DNA of 64,000 bases from a virus (Duplodnaviria > Caudoviricetes). The stretch is from positions 15,986 to 79,985 of IMG/VR virus record IMGVR_UViG_3300033070_000479; one strand, given 5' to 3'. A program made the position numbers and the translations under genes. Below, in pieces: positions 7,176 to 19,053 of the stretch (positions within the stretch are counted from its first letter, which is position 1; every line of letters begins with the position of its first letter). Below the pieces are notes generated by a model. It was not told the origin of the DNA. It ran no database searches and saw nothing but the letters and a program-made list of their open reading frames with translations.

Positions 7176-8987
7176 ATGGACCGTGACTTTACTGTCGGCA
7201 TGGCGTGCTTCAACGACTTTGACGGCGTCTACTTCACAGTAGAGGCTCTGAAAGTGTTTCACGCCGACAGGGTGGCGCAGATCATCGTCGTTGACGACTC
7301 GCCCGAAGGCCCGGTCCAAGAACGGACCATGAAGTGGTGCCGTAGGCTGTCCAACGTGCTCTACGTCCGGTCTCACGTACACGGCACCTCGGCCCCGCGT
7401 AACCGGGTGTTTGCGGAGGCTACGTCTGAGAAGGTTGTGTGCATCGACTCACACGTCCTGATACACCCCGGGTCGTTTTCTGCCCTGGACGACTTCTGGG
7501 CCGTTACTGCCGGCCACGGTATCCGCCTAGCTCACGGCGTCTTGATGGAGGACGACAACCGGGTTCCGCTGTCGTCGTTCCGAGACGAGTGGGGCGACGA
7601 CCTGATGCACGGGAAGTGGCACACAGACACAGCACAGTTTCCTCTGACTAACCTACGCGTGCCCGGTACCGCGGCGTACGCGTCCGATGACCTCGGACGT
7701 CCGGTCGCCGCCAAGCCGTGGATCGACGTGTGGTCGCAGGGGCTGGGCGGGTTCGCCTGCCTTAGGGACGAGTGGCCGGGCTTCCACCCGGGGTTTTCCC
7801 AGTTCGGCGGAGAAGAGGGCTACATTGACGACAAGTTCAGGCGTATGGGCGGGATGGCGGTATCCGTATCCGGGTTCCGGTGGACTCACCGATTTCATGA
7901 CCAGGACGTCAAAACACCGGCCTCCTCCTATTCGAGATCTACTGTCGCAAAGTTCCGGAACTACGTACTCGGACGTCGAGACAATTTACTACAGACTGCT
8001 GATGTCACGGCGGCTTACGCCGGTAAAGGACACCCCGCCGAGAGGTGGGCGTCCGACGTAGAGACGGAAGTAAATGCTAAGCCGTCGAAGACGCAAGGCT
8101 CAGTCACCGTCTCCGCCCCTGCCCCCGCCAAGAAGTGCGGAGGGTGCGGAGCGGGTGGGTCCAAGGAGGTTGCCGAAAAGTGGGCTGAGGTCATGTCCCG
8201 CAACGCGGAGTTGCGGGCCATGATCGAATCCGTGAAATCGATAGCCGCAGGAAAACACGTGTGGGTAGGGCCTGAGGCGTACGCAGGCGTCCTGGAGTCG
8301 TCGGCGTGCGTGGCGGCAGTGGCGGCAGGCGCCGCGTCGGTAACCCTGTGTGTGCCGAAACAGGACGATACGACTAAGAACTGGGTTCAGTCCGTCACGT
8401 CCATGCTGTCCGACAAGGTGTCTGTGTCGAGCCGAGACATGTGGCCAGGTCAGGCGATCGTGCTGTCCCCCGTAGGACTCCCTGGCGCCGTAAAGGAGTA
8501 CACGCACGAGATCTCTAAGGTGGGGTCGTCGTGGGTCGTGTCGACGCGCGCCGCAGAGCCGAAGAGGATTCCGCTGCCGGTAACCAACGCGGCCGCAGTC
8601 GCCGCACAATATCCGGATCACGCTGTCGTGAAGTCCGCCACCGGAAAACCGGAATTGGCTCCGGTGTGGGAACTGGACCCGTCCGTCAAGGTACTGCCGG
8701 GTCGCGGCCGCATGGCGCTCAACTACTTGAAGTTTCTGACGTCGGATAAAGAGCAGGCCACCCCGGAAGTCGCCAAAGAGCGCATGGACAAGTGCTGGAC
8801 GTGCCCGAACCGTAAGCCGGTGCTGTACCCGGACCGCAACTGGTACCAGCGGTGTACGGATACGGAAGAAGCTAAGGGGTGCGGCTGCTTCCTGGACTGG
8901 TCTCCGCCTAACCCCAACAACAACACGCAGCCCGAGCCGGGTAAGGTGGCTTACGCCGACCAGGCCTGCCCGCGCGGATTTTGGTAG
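7176..8987 (+). CDS. Multidomain GT-A glycosyltransferase with DxH motif and C-terminal Cys-cluster domain
   Basis: IIVVDDSP, GTSAPRNRVF, VVCIDSHVL, GLGGFAC...FGGEEGY...MGG; C-terminal ERMDKCWTC...GCGCF...CPRGFW. AACAGGAG RBS upstream. Confidence 0.8.
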   Translation: MDRDFTVGMACFNDFDGVYFTVEALKVFHADRVAQIIVVDDSPEGPVQERTMKWCRRLSNVLYVRSHVHGTSAPRNRVFAEATSEKVVCIDSHVLIHPGSFSALDDFWAVTAGHGIRLAHGVLMEDDNRVPLSSFRDEWGDDLMHGKWHTDTAQFPLTNLRVPGTAAYASDDLGRPVAAKPWIDVWSQGLGGFACLRDEWPGFHPGFSQFGGEEGYIDDKFRRMGGMAVSVSGFRWTHRFHDQDVKTPASSYSRSTVAKFRNYVLGRRDNLLQTADVTAAYAGKGHPAERWASDVETEVNAKPSKTQGSVTVSAPAPAKKCGGCGAGGSKEVAEKWAEVMSRNAELRAMIESVKSIAAGKHVWVGPEAYAGVLESSACVAAVAAGAASVTLCVPKQDDTTKNWVQSVTSMLSDKVSVSSRDMWPGQAIVLSPVGLPGAVKEYTHEISKVGSSWVVSTRAAEPKRIPLPVTNAAAVAAQYPDHAVVKSATGKPELAPVWELDPSVKVLPGRGRMALNYLKFLTSDKEQATPEVAKERMDKCWTCPNRKPVLYPDRNWYQRCTDTEEAKGCGCFLDWSPPNPNNNTQPEPGKVAYADQACPRGFW

Positions 8988-9010
8988 ACACACGCTAACA
9001 GGAGTTTCCA

Positions 9011-9826
9011 ATGGCTACGCCTCTAGTGACCGCCATGTGCCCTACGTTCGGTAGACTCCCGAAACACAGGCACTTGCTGTGTCAGTCGGTATGGTGCTTT
9101 ACGCAGCAGGATTACCCCAACAAAGAGATGGTGATCCTGAACGACGCGCCGAATCAGACGATAGGTTGTACGGTTCCAGGCGTGCGCGTCATTAACTGCC
9201 CGTCGCGGTACAAGAGTCTAGGCGAAAAGCGCAACGCCCTCCTGGCCCACGCACGGGGCGAAATACTGTTGCCGTGGGACGACGACGATATCCACCTATC
9301 GGGCCGGATGTCGCAGGCGGTAACTATGCTGGACGGGTTCGAATACTGGAACCCTCAGGCTTCGTGGTACATGAACCCTGTCGAGACGGGCGGGGCGTTG
9401 TCTCACACCCACAACCACGGCGTGTGCCACAACGCTTCTGCTTTTCGAGCCGGGGCGGTATGGTATGACCCGGTGTCCGGCGGAGAAGACCGTAAAGCCG
9501 ACCTGCGGGCCAAGGCAAGTAAAAAGACGAACCACCGGAACCTCGTGAGCGACCCGGCGTCGTGGGAGTACATCTACCGGTTCGGGGTCGGCAAACATAT
9601 CTCGTCCGTCGCTGAAGATAGGTCACAGGAGGAGTACGACCGACGTACCGCTACGCCGGGTTTGTTTTACATCAGCCCCGAGGAGCCTCCTGAGTTCAAA
9701 GAGTGGATGAAGCAGCGGAGTGCCGCCCTGGGGCCGTCCATTCAGATAAGCCACACGTCAACGCCTGGGCCGGAGATGCGGAAGCCGACCTTCCTAGAAC
9801 GACTTCTGGGGGTATGGACGCGATGA
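9011..9826 (+). CDS. Glycosyltransferase family 2
   Basis: CPTFGR, QQDYPNKEMVILND, LGEKRN, LLPWDDDDIHL motifs. AACAGGAG RBS upstream. Confidence 0.85.
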   Translation: MATPLVTAMCPTFGRLPKHRHLLCQSVWCFTQQDYPNKEMVILNDAPNQTIGCTVPGVRVINCPSRYKSLGEKRNALLAHARGEILLPWDDDDIHLSGRMSQAVTMLDGFEYWNPQASWYMNPVETGGALSHTHNHGVCHNASAFRAGAVWYDPVSGGEDRKADLRAKASKKTNHRNLVSDPASWEYIYRFGVGKHISSVAEDRSQEEYDRRTATPGLFYISPEEPPEFKEWMKQRSAALGPSIQISHTSTPGPEMRKPTFLERLLGVWTR

Positions 9827-10701
9827 CGCCATCCGCCGCAATAACCGAGTCTCTAGCTTCCGCGGACCAGTCGCGCATTGTCGACGGTACCGGTGTTGGG
9901 GTGGTTACTTGCGGCGGAGGTCCCTACCAGTACGGCATCTACGTACTGGTAAAAATGCTGCGTCTGTGCGGCTACGCCGGCGGGGTGTGGGTGTGGCACC
10001 GCGGGCCGGCTGAGCCGGTCTGCAGCGCCATTCGAAAGATGCCCGGCGTTACGGTGGTGGACGTCGTTAAGGACGCGGAAGACAACGGGCTGAGAGCCCC
10101 CGCCGGTGGCTGGGAATGCAAGGCGTACGCCATGGCGCGGACACCGGTTAAGGTAGCCGCCTTCTTTGACGCAGACGCGTACCCAGTCAACTCGATCGAC
10201 GCGTGCCTCGAAACTGCCGAGGCCGAAGGAGAAGTTTTTTGGCGTGACCTGGATAACGCCAACCTGCAGTGGAGATCGTTAGGTCTAGAAGTCCCCAAGC
10301 CGAAGTGGATTCCCGTCAACGGCGGGCAGTGGGTCGTTAACCGCGAACTCCGCAAACCGCAGCTCGCTCTCTACTCGGCGCTCACCGACAGAAGCTCGGT
10401 GCTGTACCGGTACATGCTGGGCGATCAAGACTGCCAGTTGCTGGCATGGTACCTGACCAACACCAGGTACTTCATCGGAGACCTCGAAGAGGTGCGCCAA
10501 GTGAGCGGTGTGCTCGTGTACGACTTTCCTCACGGCAGGACGCAGGTGCTGCACCGCATCGGGTCGAAGATGGCGCCGTCCGGAATGTTCTCGCGTGGCA
10601 CGTACTCTGGTCCGGTTAGAGGTCTGCCTCTGGAGCGACAAGCCACCTCTTTTTACGCCGAAGCCGTAGACGCCGTCGGCGTGCCGATTCGCGCTAAATA
10701 A
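9823..10701 (+). CDS. Glycosyltransferase, alpha-mannosyltransferase (GT71/Mannosyl_trans3)-like
   Basis: ATG 9823 overlaps the upstream TGA. GVGVVTCGGG, GGWECKAYAM, FFDADAYPV (DxD), VFWRD, NGGQWVVNR, GDQD. Confidence 0.6.
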   Translation: MTPSAAITESLASADQSRIVDGTGVGVVTCGGGPYQYGIYVLVKMLRLCGYAGGVWVWHRGPAEPVCSAIRKMPGVTVVDVVKDAEDNGLRAPAGGWECKAYAMARTPVKVAAFFDADAYPVNSIDACLETAEAEGEVFWRDLDNANLQWRSLGLEVPKPKWIPVNGGQWVVNRELRKPQLALYSALTDRSSVLYRYMLGDQDCQLLAWYLTNTRYFIGDLEEVRQVSGVLVYDFPHGRTQVLHRIGSKMAPSGMFSRGTYSGPVRGLPLERQATSFYAEAVDAVGVPIRAK

Positions 10702-10805
10702 CTCTACTACTGACGTCACAATAGTTTGCGGTACTGGCGTTGCAGTCCGCGGGATAGCGCCATATGCGCAGGTTCTGTCCCATATCACAACGCAAAGGGC
10801 TTAGC

Positions 10806-11150
10806 ATGAGCGTTCAAGGAAGCAGCGACAACCTGATCAGCGTCACGTACCAGCCGGCCAGCTCGGACGTGCCGGTGGTCGTCCAGCTGCCGGCAGGCAG
10901 CACGGTCGGGCACTTGCTCGCCCACCGGGCGGTCAACTCCTCGGCGACTGGTCTGGTGTTCTTGGTCAACGGCAACAAGTCCACCACGGAGACGATTCTG
11001 TCGGAGGGCTCCCGGGTCGTCTCGATGAAGGCCAAGGTGGCCGGGGCCGTGCTCGTCGGTCAGGAAGACGACATCTACGCGATCGACGCTAGGCTGGCTG
11101 CCGGTATGGAAGCGGCCTACAAGGCCTTCAAGGCCTGCGCCGGGCTCTAA
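10806..11150 (+). CDS. Ubiquitin-like (beta-grasp, ThiS/MoaD-type) protein with C-terminal extension
   Basis: ATG 10806. Pattern ISVTYQ / VVVQLPAGSTVGHLL / VFLVNG / ILSEGSRVV, then KAKVAG80 and 34 further residues. Confidence 0.75.
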   Translation: MSVQGSSDNLISVTYQPASSDVPVVVQLPAGSTVGHLLAHRAVNSSATGLVFLVNGNKSTTETILSEGSRVVSMKAKVAGAVLVGQEDDIYAIDARLAAGMEAAYKAFKACAGL

Positions 11151-11156
11151 GACAGA

Positions 11157-12308
11157 ATGTTAACCGAAGCTCAACGCTCCCACGCCGCCGCGCAATTTGC
11201 CGCGGCGGCGTGGTCTTTGTCTACCGCGGCATGCCAGAGTGCGCCGCGCGGACCGTGGATCAACGAGCTGGCGACCTTATCCCACGCCATCTACGAAAAG
11301 ACCAGTCGGTACAACGCGGCCGTTCAGAGCCCCGCATCGTACGGCGGATCTCGAGGCGTGGCTACCAGATTCAAAGAGCTGAAGCAGGCGTGCGCCAAGT
11401 GGCGGAGTACGTACGCGAGGGCTATGGCCGGAGGACTCAAAGATCTGTCGTGGACGAGGCAGTCGGCGATTCCAAAGACCTTGGTGCAGACGGCAGAATC
11501 GGGTCTGGTGGGTTTGGAGAAGGACGGGTTCGTCCTCACGTACAGCATCGAGCAGAAGACTCTGACAGTGCATGCTCGTGAGCCGACGATAATCGAGCTA
11601 CAGTACGACCACGCCGTTCACGGGACCGGCAGCAGCGCGGCGAGAACTAGGCTGGAGAAGATAAAGGCGTCTTTCCCGATCCCGCTAAACTTCGGGAGGA
11701 TGAAGCTCACGTTCAGCCTCGGCAATACCGACATGCTGAACTACGACGCGTACATCAACGCCATGGCTAGATGCGCCTTTACTGGGTCCAAGACGATAAA
11801 GAGCGGCAACTACTACCACCCGCACGTCAAGAGCGACGGGGTGGTGTGTCTGGGCGATACGGTCCGGGCCTGCAACAACATGTTCAAGAGCGGGTCCATC
11901 AGCGAGATCGTGCACATCTTCGCGTTGGTGTGTTCGAACTACAACAGGCACAGCCCGTACATCGATCTGCACAGGTTCGTCCTACCTTCCTGCGGTGCAT
12001 GCGGTGGGTGGGAGTGTCCGCCGACTCAGGAACAGCGCGAAGACGTAATCAAGAAGTGCTTCTCGTGCCGAAGGGACGTCTGCCGTCGCAATAGGTGCTC
12101 GGAGGTGTGCGCTGAGACTGGTAACTTCGCGTGCATGTCCTGCCTCAGGAAGTGTACGGCGTGCAGCAGGGGTTACGCCGTCAACAGCAAGGGGTTCGCG
12201 TCGTTCGTGTCTTATCCGGGTAAGTGCGGGGTCTGTACGGGCACGCTGCCGGCCAGCACCCTGCTATCCGAGCAGTCCGAGACCGGCACACAAGGGCCGT
12301 CTACGTAA
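11157..12308 (+). CDS. Prokaryotic E2/UBC-fold protein with C-terminal Cys-rich Zn-binding region
   Basis: YYHPHVKSDGVVCLG matches the E2 HPN(I/V)...G.(I/V)CL signature; candidate catalytic Cys codon 11847-11849. Multiple CxxC pairs downstream. Confidence 0.75.
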   Translation: MLTEAQRSHAAAQFAAAAWSLSTAACQSAPRGPWINELATLSHAIYEKTSRYNAAVQSPASYGGSRGVATRFKELKQACAKWRSTYARAMAGGLKDLSWTRQSAIPKTLVQTAESGLVGLEKDGFVLTYSIEQKTLTVHAREPTIIELQYDHAVHGTGSSAARTRLEKIKASFPIPLNFGRMKLTFSLGNTDMLNYDAYINAMARCAFTGSKTIKSGNYYHPHVKSDGVVCLGDTVRACNNMFKSGSISEIVHIFALVCSNYNRHSPYIDLHRFVLPSCGACGGWECPPTQEQREDVIKKCFSCRRDVCRRNRCSEVCAETGNFACMSCLRKCTACSRGYAVNSKGFASFVSYPGKCGVCTGTLPASTLLSEQSETGTQGPST

Positions 12309-12338
12309 GTGATCACAATCAACAGAAGGACAGATAAT

Positions 12339-13283
12339 ATGCCAGACGGCGGACCGGTCATCTCCGGTGAAATCGCGGCGACGGACAAGTCGAATTCGGT
12401 AGTGAAGACCAGATTGCGCGGGGTGGACAAGGACGGCAACGCGCACAGGCTCGTCATGAGCCCTACCGCGTTCCTGCAGGCGAAGACCATGGTGTTCTGC
12501 GACGATAGGGAGATATCGGCCATGGCGGTCGTCGCCGAAGACGACCCTCTGTACGTCGAGCGCTTCGACATCGTCGAACAGGAAGGCAGCTCGGCCTTTA
12601 CCGAACTTGACGGCGCCGCCCTCCTCTGCCGGTCCGAGTCCTACTCTCAGTTGGGCATCGGGTACGACAGGACTATGCGGGTGTGGTTCCACACGCACCC
12701 GTTCAGCTGTGCGGCTAACCCGTCCGCCACCGACAACAGCACGTTCGCGGACGTGTTCGGCAACATGCCGTTTGCCGTGATGCTCATTCACAGCAAGGAC
12801 GGCAGTTGGGGCGCCACACTGCGGGTCGGGCAGGGCAAGATCGGCGTCAAGACCAAGCTCTCCGGAGTAGAGGTCGACTGGTCCGCCGTACCGGACATGC
12901 CGGCGTTTGACCCGCAATCCGTGATCGACGAGGTCAAGAAGCAGGTCAAGACGCGGGCGTACCAGGCCGTGCAGTTTTATCAGCCGACGCACGCTGTCAG
13001 CGGTAAGCGCTGGGACAGCGATTACGGCGGCAACCGGTGGTGGGACAAGGCGACGAAGGTCGACAACGGACCGATCACGCACGCCGGCGGCGTGGTGAAG
13101 GGGAAATTCGACGGGGGTTACGGTCCCAGCGAGGAATACCGCCCGAACCGTAAGACCAAGAAGCGCCGCCGCACCAACGTGTCGTACGAGGACGCCGCGA
13201 AGATGTGGGAGACCGACTTTGCGGACGCCGACGCCCTGGAAGAATACCTGCGTAACGCCGAGCAGCACGATGCGGGCGAGTAA
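12339..13283 (+). CDS. JAB/JAMM (MPN+) metallo-isopeptidase
   Basis: ATG 12339 after AAGGA. Upstream Glu (REISAM) plus WFHTHPFSCAANPSATD, matching the E...HxH-x7-S-x2-D JAMM motif. Confidence 0.85.
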   Translation: MPDGGPVISGEIAATDKSNSVVKTRLRGVDKDGNAHRLVMSPTAFLQAKTMVFCDDREISAMAVVAEDDPLYVERFDIVEQEGSSAFTELDGAALLCRSESYSQLGIGYDRTMRVWFHTHPFSCAANPSATDNSTFADVFGNMPFAVMLIHSKDGSWGATLRVGQGKIGVKTKLSGVEVDWSAVPDMPAFDPQSVIDEVKKQVKTRAYQAVQFYQPTHAVSGKRWDSDYGGNRWWDKATKVDNGPITHAGGVVKGKFDGGYGPSEEYRPNRKTKKRRRTNVSYEDAAKMWETDFADADALEEYLRNAEQHDAGE

Positions 13284-13971
13284 CGTCGTCGACACGCCGA
13301 TCAGTGCGCGAAACGAGCGCCAGCGGTCGGTCTTGCCTGAGGCGGCTCTCTTGTTTCGTCCGGCAGTAGTCATCGGGGTGGGGGCTATCGGACGCCCTAC
13401 GGCCGAGATGCTGTCCGGTACCGGTGTTCGCAGGCTGGACCTCTGGGACTTCGACACGGTCGAAGAGGTCAACATCGGCAACCAGGGTTACAGGCCTTCC
13501 GACGTCGGTAAGCGTAAAGCCGACGCCTGTAAAGAGTTCTGCGTGGCGAAGTCGCCGTCCTCGGCCGTGCGCGCCATGTACGAGGCGGTCGGCCCGTCCA
13601 CGTCTATCACGGACGAAAGTCCCGAAGACGTAGCGGTGTTTTGCTGCGTGGACAAGATGTCCGCCCGCAAGGAGATCGCCTCTCTCTGCAAGGCGAACGG
13701 GGTTGGCCTGTTTGTCGACACCCGCATGCTGGGGGACGACGTACGCGTCTACTGCTGCCGTACTCCTGAAGCGTACGAGGTGTACCTTAAGGAGCTGTTT
13801 ACAGACGAAGAGGCCGAACCCGGACGGTGCGGGAATTCCTCTAACGTCTACGCGTCAAACACGGCCGCCTCTCTGGCGGTCAAACTGTGGACCTTGTGGC
13901 TACGGGATCTCCCGAGCCCCAAGGAAGTTGTGGCGACCCTTAGCGGGTTCGCAATCGTGGCCGACTACTAG
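13270..13971 (+). CDS. E1-like ThiF/MoeB-family adenylyltransferase
   Basis: VIGVGAIG, DFDTVEEVNIGNQ, DVGKRKA, CCVD, DTRM; candidate thioester Cys in EPGRCGNS (codon 13828-13830). Start approximate. Confidence 0.9.
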   Translation: MRASNVVDTPISARNERQRSVLPEAALLFRPAVVIGVGAIGRPTAEMLSGTGVRRLDLWDFDTVEEVNIGNQGYRPSDVGKRKADACKEFCVAKSPSSAVRAMYEAVGPSTSITDESPEDVAVFCCVDKMSARKEIASLCKANGVGLFVDTRMLGDDVRVYCCRTPEAYEVYLKELFTDEEAEPGRCGNSSNVYASNTAASLAVKLWTLWLRDLPSPKEVVATLSGFAIVADY

Positions 13972-14008
13972 TCGGCCTTTCTTTACCGACCCCATAACAG
14001 GAGAGAAC

Positions 14009-15349
14009 GTGGCCAAAGCCAAAGGAACTTCCGCGTCTGTGGCGCAATCGCTGCCGTCGACTCTGACCGCCGACGGCATCGAGGACATGATCGTCAAGTG
14101 TGTGCAGTCCCACGTGGTCCCGATGATCTGGGGTCCGCCAGGGGTCGGTAAGACCCGTCGCATCGAGGCCGTGGCCCGGCGTCTGGCCCAGCACACCGGG
14201 TTGTCGGCAGAAGTTCACACGCTGATCTGCTCCATGTGCGAACCCAGCGACCTGGCCGGCTTCCCGATCGCTGACGGAAAATACCGCCGGCCGGACGGGT
14301 CGGACTTGTCGGTGGTCCAGTTCGCTCCGCGGGAGTCCTTTGTGCGCTTGGCGACGCACGGCGGCGTCCTGTTCTTCGACGAGCTGTCCACGGCCCCACC
14401 GTCCATCCAGGCGGTGGCGCTGCGGATCATCAACGACCGCGTCGCCGGCGACATTCACTTGCCGCCGAACAAAGTCGCCATGATCGCCGCCGGAAACCCG
14501 CCCGAAACGGGGGCCGGCGTGTTCGACCTGTCGGCGCCGATGGCCAACCGGCTCTGCCACCTCCAGTGGCCGACGGACTCGCAGTTCCGCCGGGCCTGGG
14601 CGGAAGACTTCATCTCGTACTGGGGCAGCCCGCCGAAGGTGGAGTTCAACGGCCGGCAGGTTCCGGAGGAGTTCTACTCGCGGGCCCGGCGCGCCGTCTC
14701 GGCGTTCATCATGGCGAGCCCGGAAAACCTGCTGCCGGTTCCCGGTCAGTCCTCGACCGGAACCGGTACGATCGCCGACCTGGCGTACCCGACGCCCCGG
14801 TCGTGGGACGCCGCGGCCCGCGTGCTGGCGTCCGGCGAAAGCCGGCTGTTCGATAAAGAGGAGGGCCAGGCCATGCTCAGCCTGATCTCCGGCCTCGTCG
14901 GCACCGGCCCGGCGCAGGCGTTCTCCAAGTTCATTCGCGACTCGGACCTCCCCGACCCGGTCCGGCTGCTGGAAAACCCGGAGTCGTACCAGCCGCAGAA
15001 AGAAAACTTCGTGGCTTACGCGACCGTGACGGCCGTCGTAAACCTGGTACTGTCGTACCTGGCCGTGAGCCGGGATGAGCTGCGGGCGGCCAAGTCTTCG
15101 GACCCCGTCTACCGCAAGGCCGTCAAGTACGTCATGAACGGCGCCAAGCTCGTGGTGGCCGCCGGCGAAGGACGTCTGGAAACGGCCAAAGGCCCTCTGG
15201 ACCGGCTGCTGGCGGCGGCCCGGGAAGTCCACCTGACGCAGCAGGAGCAAGTGGCGCTCAACTCCATCACCGCACCGTATGCGAAGGACATGCAGCGGTA
15301 CAAGAACATGGTCGTCACCAGCGTTCGGACCGTCTCCACGGAAAAGTGA
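14009..15349 (+). CDS. MoxR-type (AAA_5/dynein-related) AAA+ ATPase
   Basis: GTG 14009 after AACAGGAG. Walker A WGPPGVGKT, Walker B LFFDELS, AAGNP, LSAPMANRLCH, PTPRSW. Confidence 0.9.
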   Translation: MAKAKGTSASVAQSLPSTLTADGIEDMIVKCVQSHVVPMIWGPPGVGKTRRIEAVARRLAQHTGLSAEVHTLICSMCEPSDLAGFPIADGKYRRPDGSDLSVVQFAPRESFVRLATHGGVLFFDELSTAPPSIQAVALRIINDRVAGDIHLPPNKVAMIAAGNPPETGAGVFDLSAPMANRLCHLQWPTDSQFRRAWAEDFISYWGSPPKVEFNGRQVPEEFYSRARRAVSAFIMASPENLLPVPGQSSTGTGTIADLAYPTPRSWDAAARVLASGESRLFDKEEGQAMLSLISGLVGTGPAQAFSKFIRDSDLPDPVRLLENPESYQPQKENFVAYATVTAVVNLVLSYLAVSRDELRAAKSSDPVYRKAVKYVMNGAKLVVAAGEGRLETAKGPLDRLLAAAREVHLTQQEQVALNSITAPYAKDMQRYKNMVVTSVRTVSTEK

Positions 15350-15362
15350 GGACCAGACGACG

Positions 15363-16631
15363 ATGACTAGTTCAGAACGGATTACTGCGGCCAAGTTGCT
15401 GGCCGTGCAGTGGTGGCCGTACTTGGCGGACGCCGTCGTCCGCCTCCCGGTCAGGTTCTCTCCCGGCGTCCCGACCATGGGCGTCTCGAAAGATTGGATC
15501 CTGTACATCAACCCGGAATGGGCGGACAAGCAGAGCGTGGCGATGTTGGCCCTCATCATCGCCGGTCACGAAGTCGGTGGGCACCTGCTCAACGACCACG
15601 CGTGCCGCGCAGCCGGGTTGCACCACGAACTGTCGAACATGGCCGGCGACTTGGCCATCAACTGTCACCTGAAGAACTACCGCGACAGCGCCTGCTTGAG
15701 CGGTGCGAAGGATCAGATCACGGTCCCGGATGACCCTGAAGAGGCCCTCTATCCGAAGAACTTCAAAGCCAAGGACGGTACGCCTTTTCCAGACAACCTG
15801 ATGATGGAGGAGTACTACGCCCTACTCCTCGACAACGCCACACTCATCGGTACCGGCCAAGGGAAAGGAGACGGCAAAGGGAAGTGCAAGTGCGGGTCCG
15901 GCGCCACCGGGGTCGCGGAAGACTGGGAGGAGGGCACGTCTGTCGGACAAGACGGCCAAGACCAAGGAGTCAGTCCGGCGGAAGCGTCTCTGATTCGCGA
16001 CGCGGTGGCTGCTGCGTGCAAGAAGCACGAAGAGCAGCGCGGACGTGGGTCAGTGCCGTCCGGGCTACTGCGGTGGGCTGACGACAGGCTCCGCCCGCCA
16101 CAGGTTCCCTGGACGACGCAGATACGCAGGCACATCCAGCGTATCGTGGCGGGGCGCGGCAGGGGTGACTACTCCTACACGCAGTACAACCGCCGGTCTC
16201 AGGGTCGTCTGATTCTGCCGGGCATGGTTGAGCACAAGAAGAAGTGCAACGCGGTTCTGGACACGTCCGGAAGTATGTGTGACGAACGCATACGGGCCGG
16301 CTTGTCCGAGCTGGTGGCGGCGGCTTCTCACCTTGGCCCTATCCAGCTGTTTGCGTGCGACGCCGCGGCGGCTGACGCCGGTACGCTGCGTACCAAATCG
16401 GACGTGAAGAAGCTGAAACTGCAGGGCGGAGGCGGCACCGACATGGGTGCAGGCCTGAACGCCGCCGCAGAGTCCAAACCGACGTTTACGTTGGTACTAA
16501 CCGACGGCGACACCCCGTGGCCGGAAGACAAACCTACGGGGTTAGGAGAAATCCTGGTCGTGCTTATCGGCCGGTACGGGGCAGACCGAGTTCCGGACTG
16601 GGCCGAATGGGTGGCTGTCGACGACGGCTGA
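15363..16631 (+). CDS. Putative metallopeptidase plus VWA domain protein (DUF2201-like), MoxR partner
   Basis: HEVGGHLLNDHACR (HExxH-like), NMAGDLAIN; VWA MIDAS residues DTSGSM, GGGTD, LTDG. Confidence 0.85.
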   Translation: MTSSERITAAKLLAVQWWPYLADAVVRLPVRFSPGVPTMGVSKDWILYINPEWADKQSVAMLALIIAGHEVGGHLLNDHACRAAGLHHELSNMAGDLAINCHLKNYRDSACLSGAKDQITVPDDPEEALYPKNFKAKDGTPFPDNLMMEEYYALLLDNATLIGTGQGKGDGKGKCKCGSGATGVAEDWEEGTSVGQDGQDQGVSPAEASLIRDAVAAACKKHEEQRGRGSVPSGLLRWADDRLRPPQVPWTTQIRRHIQRIVAGRGRGDYSYTQYNRRSQGRLILPGMVEHKKKCNAVLDTSGSMCDERIRAGLSELVAAASHLGPIQLFACDAAAADAGTLRTKSDVKKLKLQGGGGTDMGAGLNAAAESKPTFTLVLTDGDTPWPEDKPTGLGEILVVLIGRYGADRVPDWAEWVAVDDG

Positions 16632-16642
16632 CGTGCTACAAT

Positions 16643-16678
16643 AACCCCCGGGGCTACGGCCCCGGGGGTTTACTTTTT
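16643..16678 (+). terminator. Intrinsic terminator ending the Ubl-AAA operon
   Basis: Perfect 12-bp stem aacccccggggc/gccccgggggtt with a TACG (cUACGg-type) loop, followed by TACTTTTT. Confidence 0.85.
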
Positions 16679-16702
16679 CCGTTTGGTATCGGAGGGTTAT
16701 AC

Positions 16703-17056
16703 GTGGCAGCGTCCTTTGCAGTCTCATACACGTACAACCCGACTGCCCAACAAATTACCTTTACAGTAGACTCGTTCACGTCGCCGGCCGACTCGGCGGC
16801 CGTGTTCTACCTTAAGGACGCCAGCCCGACTCCAGAGTATATGGGGATCTGTACTGTGGCCGAACTCAGCACAGTCCCGACGGACCCTCCGATACCAGGG
16901 GATTACTACCGCGCCGCGTCTACCACCTTCTCGGTGGCTTCCGAGAACATGAACAGTGCGGTGTATAACGTTCGTCAAGGCCTGGATAAGCTGTGCGTAG
17001 GTTTGGACGCAGAAGCGCAGGGGCTGGTGGCCGGTTCGTTTACGGCGGGAGGGTAA
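16703..17056 (+). CDS. Hypothetical beta-rich protein (possibly structural)
   Basis: GTG 16703 after GGAGG. Confidence 0.55.
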   Translation: MAASFAVSYTYNPTAQQITFTVDSFTSPADSAAVFYLKDASPTPEYMGICTVAELSTVPTDPPIPGDYYRAASTTFSVASENMNSAVYNVRQGLDKLCVGLDAEAQGLVAGSFTAGG

Positions 17057-17060
17057 ACTA

Positions 17061-17345
17061 ATGGCCACGAAAGTCATAGACGACTCGGCTCTAGCCGAAC
17101 TCGCCGCTCGACCGGACGTCGTGGCCGAGTTCCCGATATTTGGGCAGCGCAGGGCTCCTTCCGTCAGATCGTGCTGCGCCGGCAAAGGTAATCAAAAGGC
17201 CGGAACTGCCTCTGGGGCCGTCATCCGACAAGCCGTCTTGCACATGGGCGGCGAGAGAATTTCCAGGCTAAAACAGTTACTCGGTGTGGACACTTTGATA
17301 GTATGGACCATGTCCGGCAATAAGGCCGTCTCAACCACGATATGA
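17061..17345 (+). CDS. Hypothetical protein
   Basis: 94-aa ORF with tight spacing to neighbours. Confidence 0.55.
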   Translation: MATKVIDDSALAELAARPDVVAEFPIFGQRRAPSVRSCCAGKGNQKAGTASGAVIRQAVLHMGGERISRLKQLLGVDTLIVWTMSGNKAVSTTI

Positions 17346-17815
17346 GGACTTCGATGTCGAAGACTAAAGTTAAGGCGAATCTTGTCGACCTGCGCCACTC
17401 GCCCACCAAGCTCGTCATCAACGGCGTTGAGGTGGACCAGGCCAGTGAATCCGCGCCGTGGGTCGCAGACATGCTCAAAGGCGGTTCTGTCGATTCTTCG
17501 TCCAAGGTCCAGTATTACCTGGACGCGATGCAAGTGGACATGGACCTCACGAAGCGCGGGTCCGACAACAACGCGCAGACCGTGACGATCACTGTGGTTT
17601 CGGACAACCCGCGCCTGGCAGACAGCCCGCACGCAAAGCTGCTCGCTCAGGAATTTCTGGAACGTCAGGGCTACACGAAGCCGTTCTTCAAGCGCGTCAG
17701 CACCGTGATGTCGTACGACCCGGAAGCCGAAAAACCGACAGACCGCATGAAGCTGGCCCCCGGTCTGAAGTCGGCTACAGGTAAGTTCGCGGCCAACCTG
17801 ACGTTCATCGTCTAA
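17342..17815 (+). CDS. Hypothetical protein (strong C/G third-position bias)
   Basis: ATGA overlap with the previous gene; alternative ATG at 17354. Confidence 0.65.
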   Translation: MRTSMSKTKVKANLVDLRHSPTKLVINGVEVDQASESAPWVADMLKGGSVDSSSKVQYYLDAMQVDMDLTKRGSDNNAQTVTITVVSDNPRLADSPHAKLLAQEFLERQGYTKPFFKRVSTVMSYDPEAEKPTDRMKLAPGLKSATGKFAANLTFIV

Positions 17816-18216
17816 TGGCAGAGTTTGCCGATATCGGCCTATCACCGAGGATCACGCCGTCTCGTATGGCCGCCATACGGGCTGAGTTCTCCGGTGATGC
17901 GTTAGAGCCGGCACTGTGGGTGGCGGACATTCTGTTGGCCGCAGTGCCTGATTACCCTGAAGGCGCCGTAGGCGGTCTCAAGTACCTCAAGGAAGACGTG
18001 GCGGCTGCGGCCGCCACGAAACCTTCAGTTTTTGGTATCGCAGACGGGTGGATGCTGTCCGGCACTCGGTCTTCTGGCGGATGGGACCTGGCAACTAACG
18101 CCGCCACAACTGTATCACTCGGGGACGCAAAATGGCTGTCGTGCAGGATGTACAACCTGACGGCGATCGTAGCGTCGAAGCGGGCGGAAGCGCAGAGGCT
18201 CCGCGGGCGGACGTAA
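17815..18216 (+). CDS. Hypothetical protein
   Basis: TAATG coupling with the previous gene. Confidence 0.6.
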   Translation: MAEFADIGLSPRITPSRMAAIRAEFSGDALEPALWVADILLAAVPDYPEGAVGGLKYLKEDVAAAAATKPSVFGIADGWMLSGTRSSGGWDLATNAATTVSLGDAKWLSCRMYNLTAIVASKRAEAQRLRGRT

Positions 18217-18890
18217 ACATCTGGGCCCGCGACGACGTGTACGGGTGCGTCCTGCTGGTAGAGGCGGTTGACAAATTCGGTACCGAGTTTCTGAGCTTCT
18301 CTCCTGAGACGTGGCGGGCAGAAATACGCGACACGTTCTTAGTAGAACCCAGCGACGCCTCGATTGACCGGCTGGCTGTGGCTGTGTCGATTGCTACTTC
18401 ACCTGACCCGTTCTTTAACACAGTCCGCGGATTCGACGTAGGCGCCCGGGTGCTGTCGTCTGCCGTAGAAGGGCGTCGCTTCGATCCACGTGACCTAGCA
18501 GACCTGTACGATTGTTTGTGGGCCGGGGTCGAGGCGCAGATAATCGACCGTGATCACCAGCCGTACTCTGACTTCGTCAAAGAGTACGTCAAGGTGTGCC
18601 GGCTGGCGTACTCGGCGCACGGCGACAGCGCTAACGCTTTGTTCGACTCGCTGTTCGGGCCTGGAACCGATCCCGGAGAAGACAAGGACGCCGTCGACGA
18701 CGGCACTGACGAGTGGGCGGCCGCGTTTGCCGGTAAGGAGGCGTCCAACAGGCAGCTAGTGGCGTACATTACTTCGGGTCTTCAAGACCTGAGTGAACAG
18801 TTTCGGTCGTTAGTGCTGCGCGGAGGAAATGCCAAACAACTGGCAGACCACATCGCACAGTCCCTACTAGGAGGCGGGTCAGGTGACTAA
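18132..18890 (+). CDS. Hypothetical acidic protein (start uncertain)
   Basis: 252-aa ORF; the true start is probably nearer 18216. Confidence 0.55.
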   Translation: MAVVQDVQPDGDRSVEAGGSAEAPRADVNIWARDDVYGCVLLVEAVDKFGTEFLSFSPETWRAEIRDTFLVEPSDASIDRLAVAVSIATSPDPFFNTVRGFDVGARVLSSAVEGRRFDPRDLADLYDCLWAGVEAQIIDRDHQPYSDFVKEYVKVCRLAYSAHGDSANALFDSLFGPGTDPGEDKDAVDDGTDEWAAAFAGKEASNRQLVAYITSGLQDLSEQFRSLVLRGGNAKQLADHIAQSLLGGGSGD

Positions 18891-19053
18891 ACCGCAAGCA
18901 GAGGCTCTGATTTCGTTACTCATCACCCACGGCAAGGCGGCGGTCGAGGACCACCCCAAACCGCTTACTCAGAGTGCCGCGTCTTTGGACGCCGTCATTC
19001 GAACTGCCGAGGCCCTGTTTAAGTCAGATCAGCCGGCGTCCGATAAGTCCTGA
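18883..19053 (+). CDS. Small hypothetical protein, 56 aa (not in ORF track)
   Basis: GTG 18883 to TGA 19053: MTKPQAEALISLLITHGKAAVEDHPK...DKS; followed by a terminator. Confidence 0.45.
   Translation: MTKPQAEALISLLITHGKAAVEDHPKPLTQSAASLDAVIRTAEALFKSDQPASDKS

Follow-up and report, generated by a model that had tools for sequence, protein, structure and literature searches.

We analysed a window of 64,000 nucleotides from a virus (Duplodnaviria; Caudoviricetes), positions 15,986–79,985 of the IMG/VR record IMGVR_UViG_3300033070_000479, in which six genes on the + strand occupy positions 10806–16631. They encode a ubiquitin-like protein (Ubl), an E2-like protein, a JAB peptidase and a short E1, followed by a MoxR-type AAA+ ATPase and a DUF2201 protein with a C-terminal VWA domain (VWA protein). 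The source record comprises 79,985 bases and is ∼54% complete according to CheckV; the GC content of the window is ∼60%. We found that the stretch consists of a conserved phage backbone, to which the MoxR and VWA genes belong, and a four-gene insert, the Ubl cassette; the domain identities of the encoded proteins and the independent distribution of the two modules are likewise observed. We read this as two separately inherited modules that were placed side by side by insertion, neither of which needs the other and whose cooperation is optional, and give this reading a probability of roughly 0.6.

The insert is apparent from a comparison with phages of the same backbone. In a tree of VWA proteins the nearest relatives of the window after the locus L003 are L006, L007, L014, L015 and L028, and all five have in common with the window an order of glycosyltransferase (GT) genes, MoxR, VWA and homologues of the genes at 18132 and 19087. 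In four of the five a large terminase gene on the minus strand comes next; L007 showed no match to the large terminase of the window. L006 and L007 carry two or three GT genes (GT2; GT9 weakly) before MoxR, and a homologue of one window GT gene was located by tblastn 2.6–6.3 kb upstream of MoxR in L014, L015 and L028. None of the five contains the cassette, and the space from the glycosyltransferases to MoxR is empty. An earlier note on this DNA had read the six genes as one machine; that this machine is obligate is unsupported, given that these five phages carry MoxR-VWA without the cassette. The sole near relative that keeps JAB-E1-MoxR-VWA is L003, whose VWA protein is 73% identical to that of the window. 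The cassette would therefore have landed between the glycosyltransferase block and MoxR in this phage lineage. In the window itself three glycosyltransferase genes (GT2, GT2 and mannosyltransferase-like; 7176–10701) lie directly upstream of the Ubl gene. Base composition was considered as a sign of recent transfer and gave none, the GC content of the cassette (59–63%) being like that of its flanks. No near-identity DNA match to the window was found among cultured phages.

Judged by sequence, the MoxR-VWA pair is of the N4 gp24/gp25 type and is widespread in phages. We found 1240 homologues of the VWA protein, all with the DUF2201_N plus DUF2201 architecture, and at least 307 relatives in viral contigs. 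Among the best 80 viral loci, which we surveyed, a MoxR homologue adjoins the VWA gene in 74; in the six loci without it the VWA gene lies within ∼2.4 kb of the locus start (mostly a contig end), so that a MoxR gene upstream could not be seen. E2, JAB or E1 genes are present in one of these 80 loci, L016, and absent from the other 79. When whole VWA-bearing records were considered (n = 49, of which 21 are at least 90% complete), the E1 family occurred in one only, the same record as L016. In tblastn searches of cultured phages the VWA protein matched the ‘N4 gp25-like protein’ of LUZ7 and proteins of other N4-like and jumbo Pseudomonas phages. When E2 or the VWA protein was used singly as the query of a locus search in viral contigs, nothing was returned. 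In N4, gp24 and gp25 are middle genes, and they are two of the 14 core genes of N4-like phages (PMC4193335), listed with function unknown (PMC2784036). For the corresponding pair of MoxR and metallopeptidase-vWA proteins in jumbo phages, a role in virion assembly and structural-protein processing has been proposed (Iyer et al. 2021, PMC7824862).

The cassette, made up of Ubl, zinc-tailed E2, JAB and short E1, is itself a mobile stand-alone module that is common in Planctomycetota. Homologues of E2 and E1 are found in cassettes of the order Ubl-E2-(x)-JAB-E1, which have integrase, recombinase or type I restriction-modification genes as neighbours and neither MoxR nor VWA. Among 80 viral E1 loci we detected the E2 family in 36 and a recognisable JAB in 26, and MoxR plus VWA in two only. 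We surveyed another 160 E1 loci in metagenomes and genomes, 80 of them at least 8 kb long, and in none is MoxR or VWA present within 10 kb. The survey of gene neighbourhoods suggested by the earlier note as a check of six-gene linkage hence went against it: the modules are unlinked in 79 of 80 viral VWA loci, 78 of 80 viral E1 loci and 160 of 160 bacterial or metagenome E1 loci. Among bacteria, the short E1 and its cassette have relatives (L254–L333, genome contigs) almost exclusively in Planctomycetota, namely in Planctomycetaceae, Pirellulaceae, Gemmatales and Phycisphaerae, which suggests this phylum as the host of the phage. Related short E1 proteins annotated as ‘thiamine biosynthesis protein’ were also seen in replication-gene neighbourhoods of Flavobacterium phage FpV4 (L334) and Xanthomonas phage PhiXhv-12 (L335), where the profiles used detected no E2 family, MoxR or VWA.

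The first gene of the cassette (10806–11150) encodes a pro-Ubl of 114 aa, with a beta-grasp domain that extends to Gly80 and a tail of 34 aa. The protein gave a weak ThiS match (E 0.006) below the Pfam cut-off and aligns with a 71-aa family that ends in ...TPTKIEG(A) and is encoded upstream of E2 in more than 70 cassettes. Gly80 falls on the invariant glycine column of the family alignment, and both Glu67 and Gly80 stand at the positions first assigned to them. The tail after Gly80 (11046–11150) is exceptional in length, as more than 70 relatives have 0–10 aa at this place. Ubls with three tandem beta-grasp domains were encountered in two other phage cassettes (L098, 5354–6118; L129, 2255–2893); three-domain Ubl3 proteins have been reported for bacterial Bil/Bub systems (PMC11601603).

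The E2-like protein (11157–12308; 383 aa) is composed of a helical N-terminal part, a UBC-like core with the motif HPH...Cys231 and a C-terminal zinc region with multiple CxxC pairs. A full HMMER scan assigned 111 proteins to its family, and a word-indexed homologue search recovered no protein besides E2 itself. Members of the family have HPH...C.G as an invariant motif, together with YN..SPY and a row of CxxC pairs; in 38 homologues H221, P222, H223, C231 and G233 are invariant. No Pfam match was obtained, and a sequence search of the PDB gave nothing credible, with one match of E 0.036 to a beta-ketoacyl synthase. In a Foldseek search with the AlphaFold model (predicted local distance difference test, pLDDT, 72), all listed PDB matches are E2 enzymes or E2-containing complexes; every match is individually below significance, the best having E 0.017, a probability of 0.92–0.95 and TMt 0.45–0.50.

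The third gene (12309–13283; 324 aa) encodes a JAB/JAMM-type peptidase carrying the motif HTHPFSCAANPSATD, the presumed processing enzyme of pro-Ubl and deconjugating enzyme. The window protein itself has no Pfam match and no PDB sequence match. It is tied to the JAB proteins of other cassettes by phmmer (1e-5 to 1e-24), and two of those match Prok-JAB (4e-5 and 6e-6). The short E1 (13270–13971; 233 aa) starts at an ATG overlapping the end of the JAB gene and is a single adenylation domain of the ThiF/MoeB type, with a ThiF match of 7e-22 in Pfam and PDB sequence matches to ThiF, UBA5, MoeB and Cap2 only. Its family consists of single-domain ThiF proteins of 200–240 aa, in whose alignment GxGxxG, R17, D60, K83, D128 and C187 are invariant. 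PADLOC recognised no named system and matched E1 only to E1-E2 models of the cyclic-oligonucleotide-based antiphage signalling system (CBASS).

From these proteins, the cassette would constitute a self-sufficient Ubl-conjugation set with a Bil-like gene order, belonging to a distinct family; its enzymology we infer from the sequences. The JAB peptidase would trim pro-Ubl after Gly80, a homodimeric short E1 would adenylate the Ubl, and the Ubl would be passed on to Cys231 of E2, whose zinc-rich tail may choose the target. By analogy with Bil, proteins of rival phages or of the host are candidate targets. MoxR and the metallopeptidase-like VWA protein would meanwhile act as chaperone and co-chaperone in virion assembly or maturation, as has been predicted in the literature.

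The MoxR-type ATPase (14009–15349; 446 aa), a homologue of N4 gp24, matches AAA_5 in Pfam (3e-8) and phrog_1297 in PHROGs (4e-54) and contains a Walker A (GPPGVGKT) and a Walker B motif (LFFDE). It is a single AAA_5 module, and the VWA domain resides on a separate protein. This VWA protein (15363–16631; 422 aa), a homologue of N4 gp25, has an N-terminal zincin-like domain and the C-terminal VWA domain, with matches to DUF2201_N (PF13203, 2e-24), DUF2201 (PF09967, 2e-13) and phrog_1314 (6e-46); a PDB sequence search gave nothing useful. Its metal-ion-dependent adhesion site (MIDAS) had been described as intact, and this is borne out by the motifs DTSGS, GGGGTD and TDGD, with D300, S302, S304, T359 and D381 invariant in 46 aligned sequences. 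The zinc motif HEVGGH (HExxGH; 15567–15584, residues 69–74) is one residue longer than HExxH, so that the former wording ‘HExxH-like’ is fair. HExxH itself is present in 44 of the 46 aligned homologues, and the longer form also in P0002. The longer motif was furthermore seen in unrelated, unlinked loci, L025/26 (HEVAGH) and L066/74/75. We considered a longer or degenerate peptidase motif as a marker of linkage to the cassette and ruled it out, as L016, L121 and L138 have HExxH and unlinked loci have the longer form.

Several results weigh against the reading of two modules that do not need each other. The modules are adjacent or at most 3 kb apart in four phage lineages with four gene orders: Ubl-E2-JAB-E1-MoxR-VWA in the window and L003; MoxR-VWA-Ubl-E2-JAB-E1 in L121; MoxR-VWA-E1-Ubl-E2 followed by a second ThiF gene in L138; and in L016 MoxR-VWA, ∼2.9 kb with RNase H and phosphatase genes, and then E2-JAB-E1. 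On the VWA tree as well as on the E1 tree (FastTree) the label ‘linked’ needs four changes, of which well-supported branches force at least three; the linked cases occupy three or more separate places on both trees and the juxtaposition thus arose several times. Four of the five lineages that hold both modules have them within 3 kb. A rough chance probability for four of four being close, with bias allowed for, is ∼1e-3, assuming genome sizes and uniform placement. Co-occurrence, rare as it is in whole records, is also enriched: a DUF2201 VWA protein is present anywhere in 3 of 39 whole cassette-bearing viral records vs 121 of 50,697 cultured-phage records. A precedent exists in bacteria, where FtsH-ternary vWA-MoxR conflict systems come with a complete set for Ubl conjugation (Kaur et al. 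2020, PMC7159879, section 21). Finally, a complex prediction for Ubl and the VWA protein, described below, lends weak support to a contact between the modules.

These results speak for an alternative in which the modules are optionally coupled in those phages where they are juxtaposed: the DUF2201 protein would bind Ubl or tagged proteins and MoxR would remodel them, or the DUF2201 protein would help to process the tail of pro-Ubl. The genes of the window are co-directional with short gaps, and the tail of the window Ubl is unusually long. However, ascertainment is biased. All linked cases are on incomplete contigs (54, 47, 9 and 78% complete), hence unlinked module pairs are under-observed, and in G025 (172 kb), the only record at least 90% complete with both modules, these are more than 50 kb apart. 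On the trees the linked cases are all tips with unlinked sisters, and no deeper clade keeping the linkage was found; for the VWA proteins of L121 and L138 no close relatives were found. Both modules overwhelmingly occur alone, no sequence feature of VWA or Ubl marks the linked cases, and at the module boundary a conserved hairpin coincides with the stop codon of E1. A shared preference for module boundaries could be behind part of the juxtaposition pattern. Weighing both sides, we hold optional coupling to be possible, with less than an even chance. The earlier idea that Ubl and MoxR-VWA belong to one system stands as far as the six co-directional genes and the recurrent juxtaposition go; it fails in that they are not one inherited unit.

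A bolder form of this alternative has phages repeatedly joining a Ubl cassette to a gp24/gp25-type pair, with the VWA protein as a receptor for Ubl or Ubl-tagged proteins in a minimal viral tag-then-remodel or tag-then-cut pathway. Such a pathway would be analogous in logic to Cdc48- or proteasome-linked ubiquitin receptors; we consider it rather unlikely. The multimer prediction of Ubl with the VWA protein, which had been suggested by the earlier note, was carried out with the full-length VWA protein, Ubl residues 1–80 and Mg, using an own alignment for each protein. It yielded a score of 0.59 (runs 0.10, 0.61 and 0.59) compared with 0.01 for the best of three controls. In the calibration of the tool, 58 of 80 solved complexes and 2 of 110 mismatched pairs reached the mark, and scores of at most 0.60 were seen for only 7 of the 80 solved complexes and for both mismatched pairs that passed, which makes this weak support. 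At least 73% of the contacts are common to the runs, and the pLDDT of the partner is at least 70. A contact between Ubl and the VWA protein is thereby weakly favoured, and where the two would meet was not specified, the tool reporting no interface.

The most specific alternative is a split midasin/proteasome-like machine, in which Glu67 of the Ubl would complete the metal site of the MIDAS, the MoxR ring would pull and the zincin domain would cut. The MIDAS of midasin/Rea1 binds UBL domains of Ytm1/Rsa4. An intact MIDAS, an acidic residue at Ubl position 67 and the weak complex score are in line with such a machine. In the model of the VWA protein (pLDDT 86.8) residues 291–422 match VWA domains with Z 10–13, and the lists of both fold searches are taken up by VWA-domain matches; one search has an MDN1-MIDAS/UBL complex at rank 4 (E 5e-4). 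In the other, the Rea1 MIDAS comes at rank 48 (Z 10.4), and the VWA domains of integrin, complement and Rpn10 score higher, with Z 12–13 (Rpn10, Z 12.4); by its predicted structure the VWA domain resembles midasin no more than it does dozens of other VWA domains. The column of Glu67, which had been put forward as a hint of a MIDAS partner, corresponds to the turn LQ(E/P/D/A/S/N)GDR and is mostly E in the Ubls of cassettes without a nearby VWA gene. The acidic turn is thus usual in VWA-less cassettes too and its conservation is explained without a MIDAS partner; on the evidence of the alignment, Glu67 is not a specific adaptation to one. With a single AAA+ module instead of six in one chain, a non-canonical HExxGH peptidase motif and no interface from the complex tool, we regard a midasin-like machine as improbable.

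The gaps of 37 nt between E1 and MoxR and of 13 nt between MoxR and VWA had been given exactly in the earlier note. The unit ends in a strong intrinsic-terminator-like hairpin (16643–16678, + strand), as previously read from the sequence: a 12-bp stem with 10 GC pairs at 16643–16670 (−29.5 kcal/mol, z −4.6) is followed by a T run. That there is no terminator inside the six genes does not fully hold, as we found hairpins at 13959–13977 and 11180–11213. The former, on the + strand over the E1 stop codon, is an 8-bp hairpin followed by TTTCTTT (−14.4 kcal/mol, z −3.3), and may be a weak terminator, an attenuator or a stabiliser. Its stem, including the non-coding 3′ arm, is identical in L003, whose proteins are 73–76% identical to those of the window and whose U tract is even weaker. 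As the U tract is poor, read-through is likely, and the hairpin is probably a conserved element at the module junction that allows read-through. The second hairpin lies 23 nt inside the E2 coding sequence and has a 13-bp GC-rich stem (−30.8 kcal/mol, z −5.2) followed by TCTTTGTCT; it could attenuate the expression of E2 relative to Ubl. No sigma-70-like promoter was found on the + strand in 9000–19000, a scan that is uninformative for a non-enterobacterial host. We infer that transcription of both modules probably begins at a common upstream start and runs in a single direction.

Other loci with both modules showed further genes around the cassette. In L138 (9977–13682) two ThiF-type E1 genes encoding 221 and 192 aa flank Ubl, E2 and a gene for a protein of 207 aa. 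RNase H genes adjoin the cassette in L016 (3949–5255) and in L121 (10728–11393), and in L016 the phosphatase between the VWA gene and the cassette is of the dual-specificity type.

Both modules are of known kinds, and the pair of MoxR and peptidase-vWA is core but functionally unexplained in N4-like and some jumbo phages; no description of the present phage arrangement was found in the literature. If a partnership of the modules is real, it would be a first clue to what gp24/gp25-type proteins act on, and would provide a case, in a virus of prokaryotes, of an AAA+ motor with a Ubl receptor coupled to it. The N4 gp24/gp25 pair has the same gene order and domains as the pair in the window, an AAA_5 MoxR protein and then a protein with DUF2201_N zincin-like and VWA domains including the MIDAS. 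The window differs in having HExxGH instead of HExxH and a Ubl cassette directly upstream; the role of the pair in phages is a prediction. A further virus-encoded pair of MoxR and vWA proteins is p618/p892 of the archaeal Acidianus two-tailed virus, with a chaperone role in virion morphogenesis, which lacks the peptidase domain and the Ubl cassette and is cited as a tail-assembly chaperone system in passages of PMC7159879 and PMC7824862. The bacterial FtsH-ternary systems resemble the window in that MoxR and vWA are encoded with Ubl, E1, E2 and JAB in one neighbourhood. They possess parts of their own, namely an FtsH-like component, a beta-propeller-vWA protein, a Ubl-E2 fusion with EAD1, a RING E3 and caspase-like effectors, and Pfam and PHROG scans detected none of the defining parts in the six proteins or their neighbours.

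The likeness to midasin/Rea1 and to the 26S proteasome (Rpn10/Rpn11/Rpt) is limited to domain types: AAA+ modules of the MoxR/dynein/midasin clade, a VWA domain with MIDAS, a beta-grasp Ubl and JAB. Midasin unites six AAA+ modules and a C-terminal MIDAS in one polypeptide, whereas the window encodes a single module. The modelled VWA domain is at least as close to integrin I domains as to Rea1 or Rpn10, and no proteasome core was seen in the window.

That bacteria and their mobile elements have Ubl conjugation cassettes was predicted in 2006, and protein conjugation by such cassettes was demonstrated in 2023–24. Among them, the bacterial ISG15-like BilABCD operons (Hor et al., bioRxiv 10.1101/2023.09.04.556158; Chambers et al., bioRxiv 10.1101/2023.09.26.559546; also PMC11601603) have, in Types I and II, the same four components in the same order: Ubl, E2, JAB peptidase and E1. 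A hallmark of Bil is defence against phages in which the Ubl is attached to a tail protein of the phage. In both systems the Ubl continues past a conserved glycine into a tail, whose removal by the JAB peptidase is a prediction. No PDB sequence match linked the cassette proteins to solved Bil proteins. The E1 of the window is a single adenylation domain of 233 aa, whereas BilD combines an inactive and an active domain in one chain; the E2 has 383 aa with the helical N-terminal part and the multi-CxxC tail; and the cassette is borne by a phage and specifies a Ubl tail of 34 aa, compared with at most 9 in Type II Bil. Even if there is no partnership with MoxR and the VWA protein, the window is of use as a record of a Bil-like cassette carried by a phage. 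This cassette belongs to a distinct family, its E1 is short and its E2 zinc-tailed, and nearly all of its bacterial relatives come from Planctomycetota.

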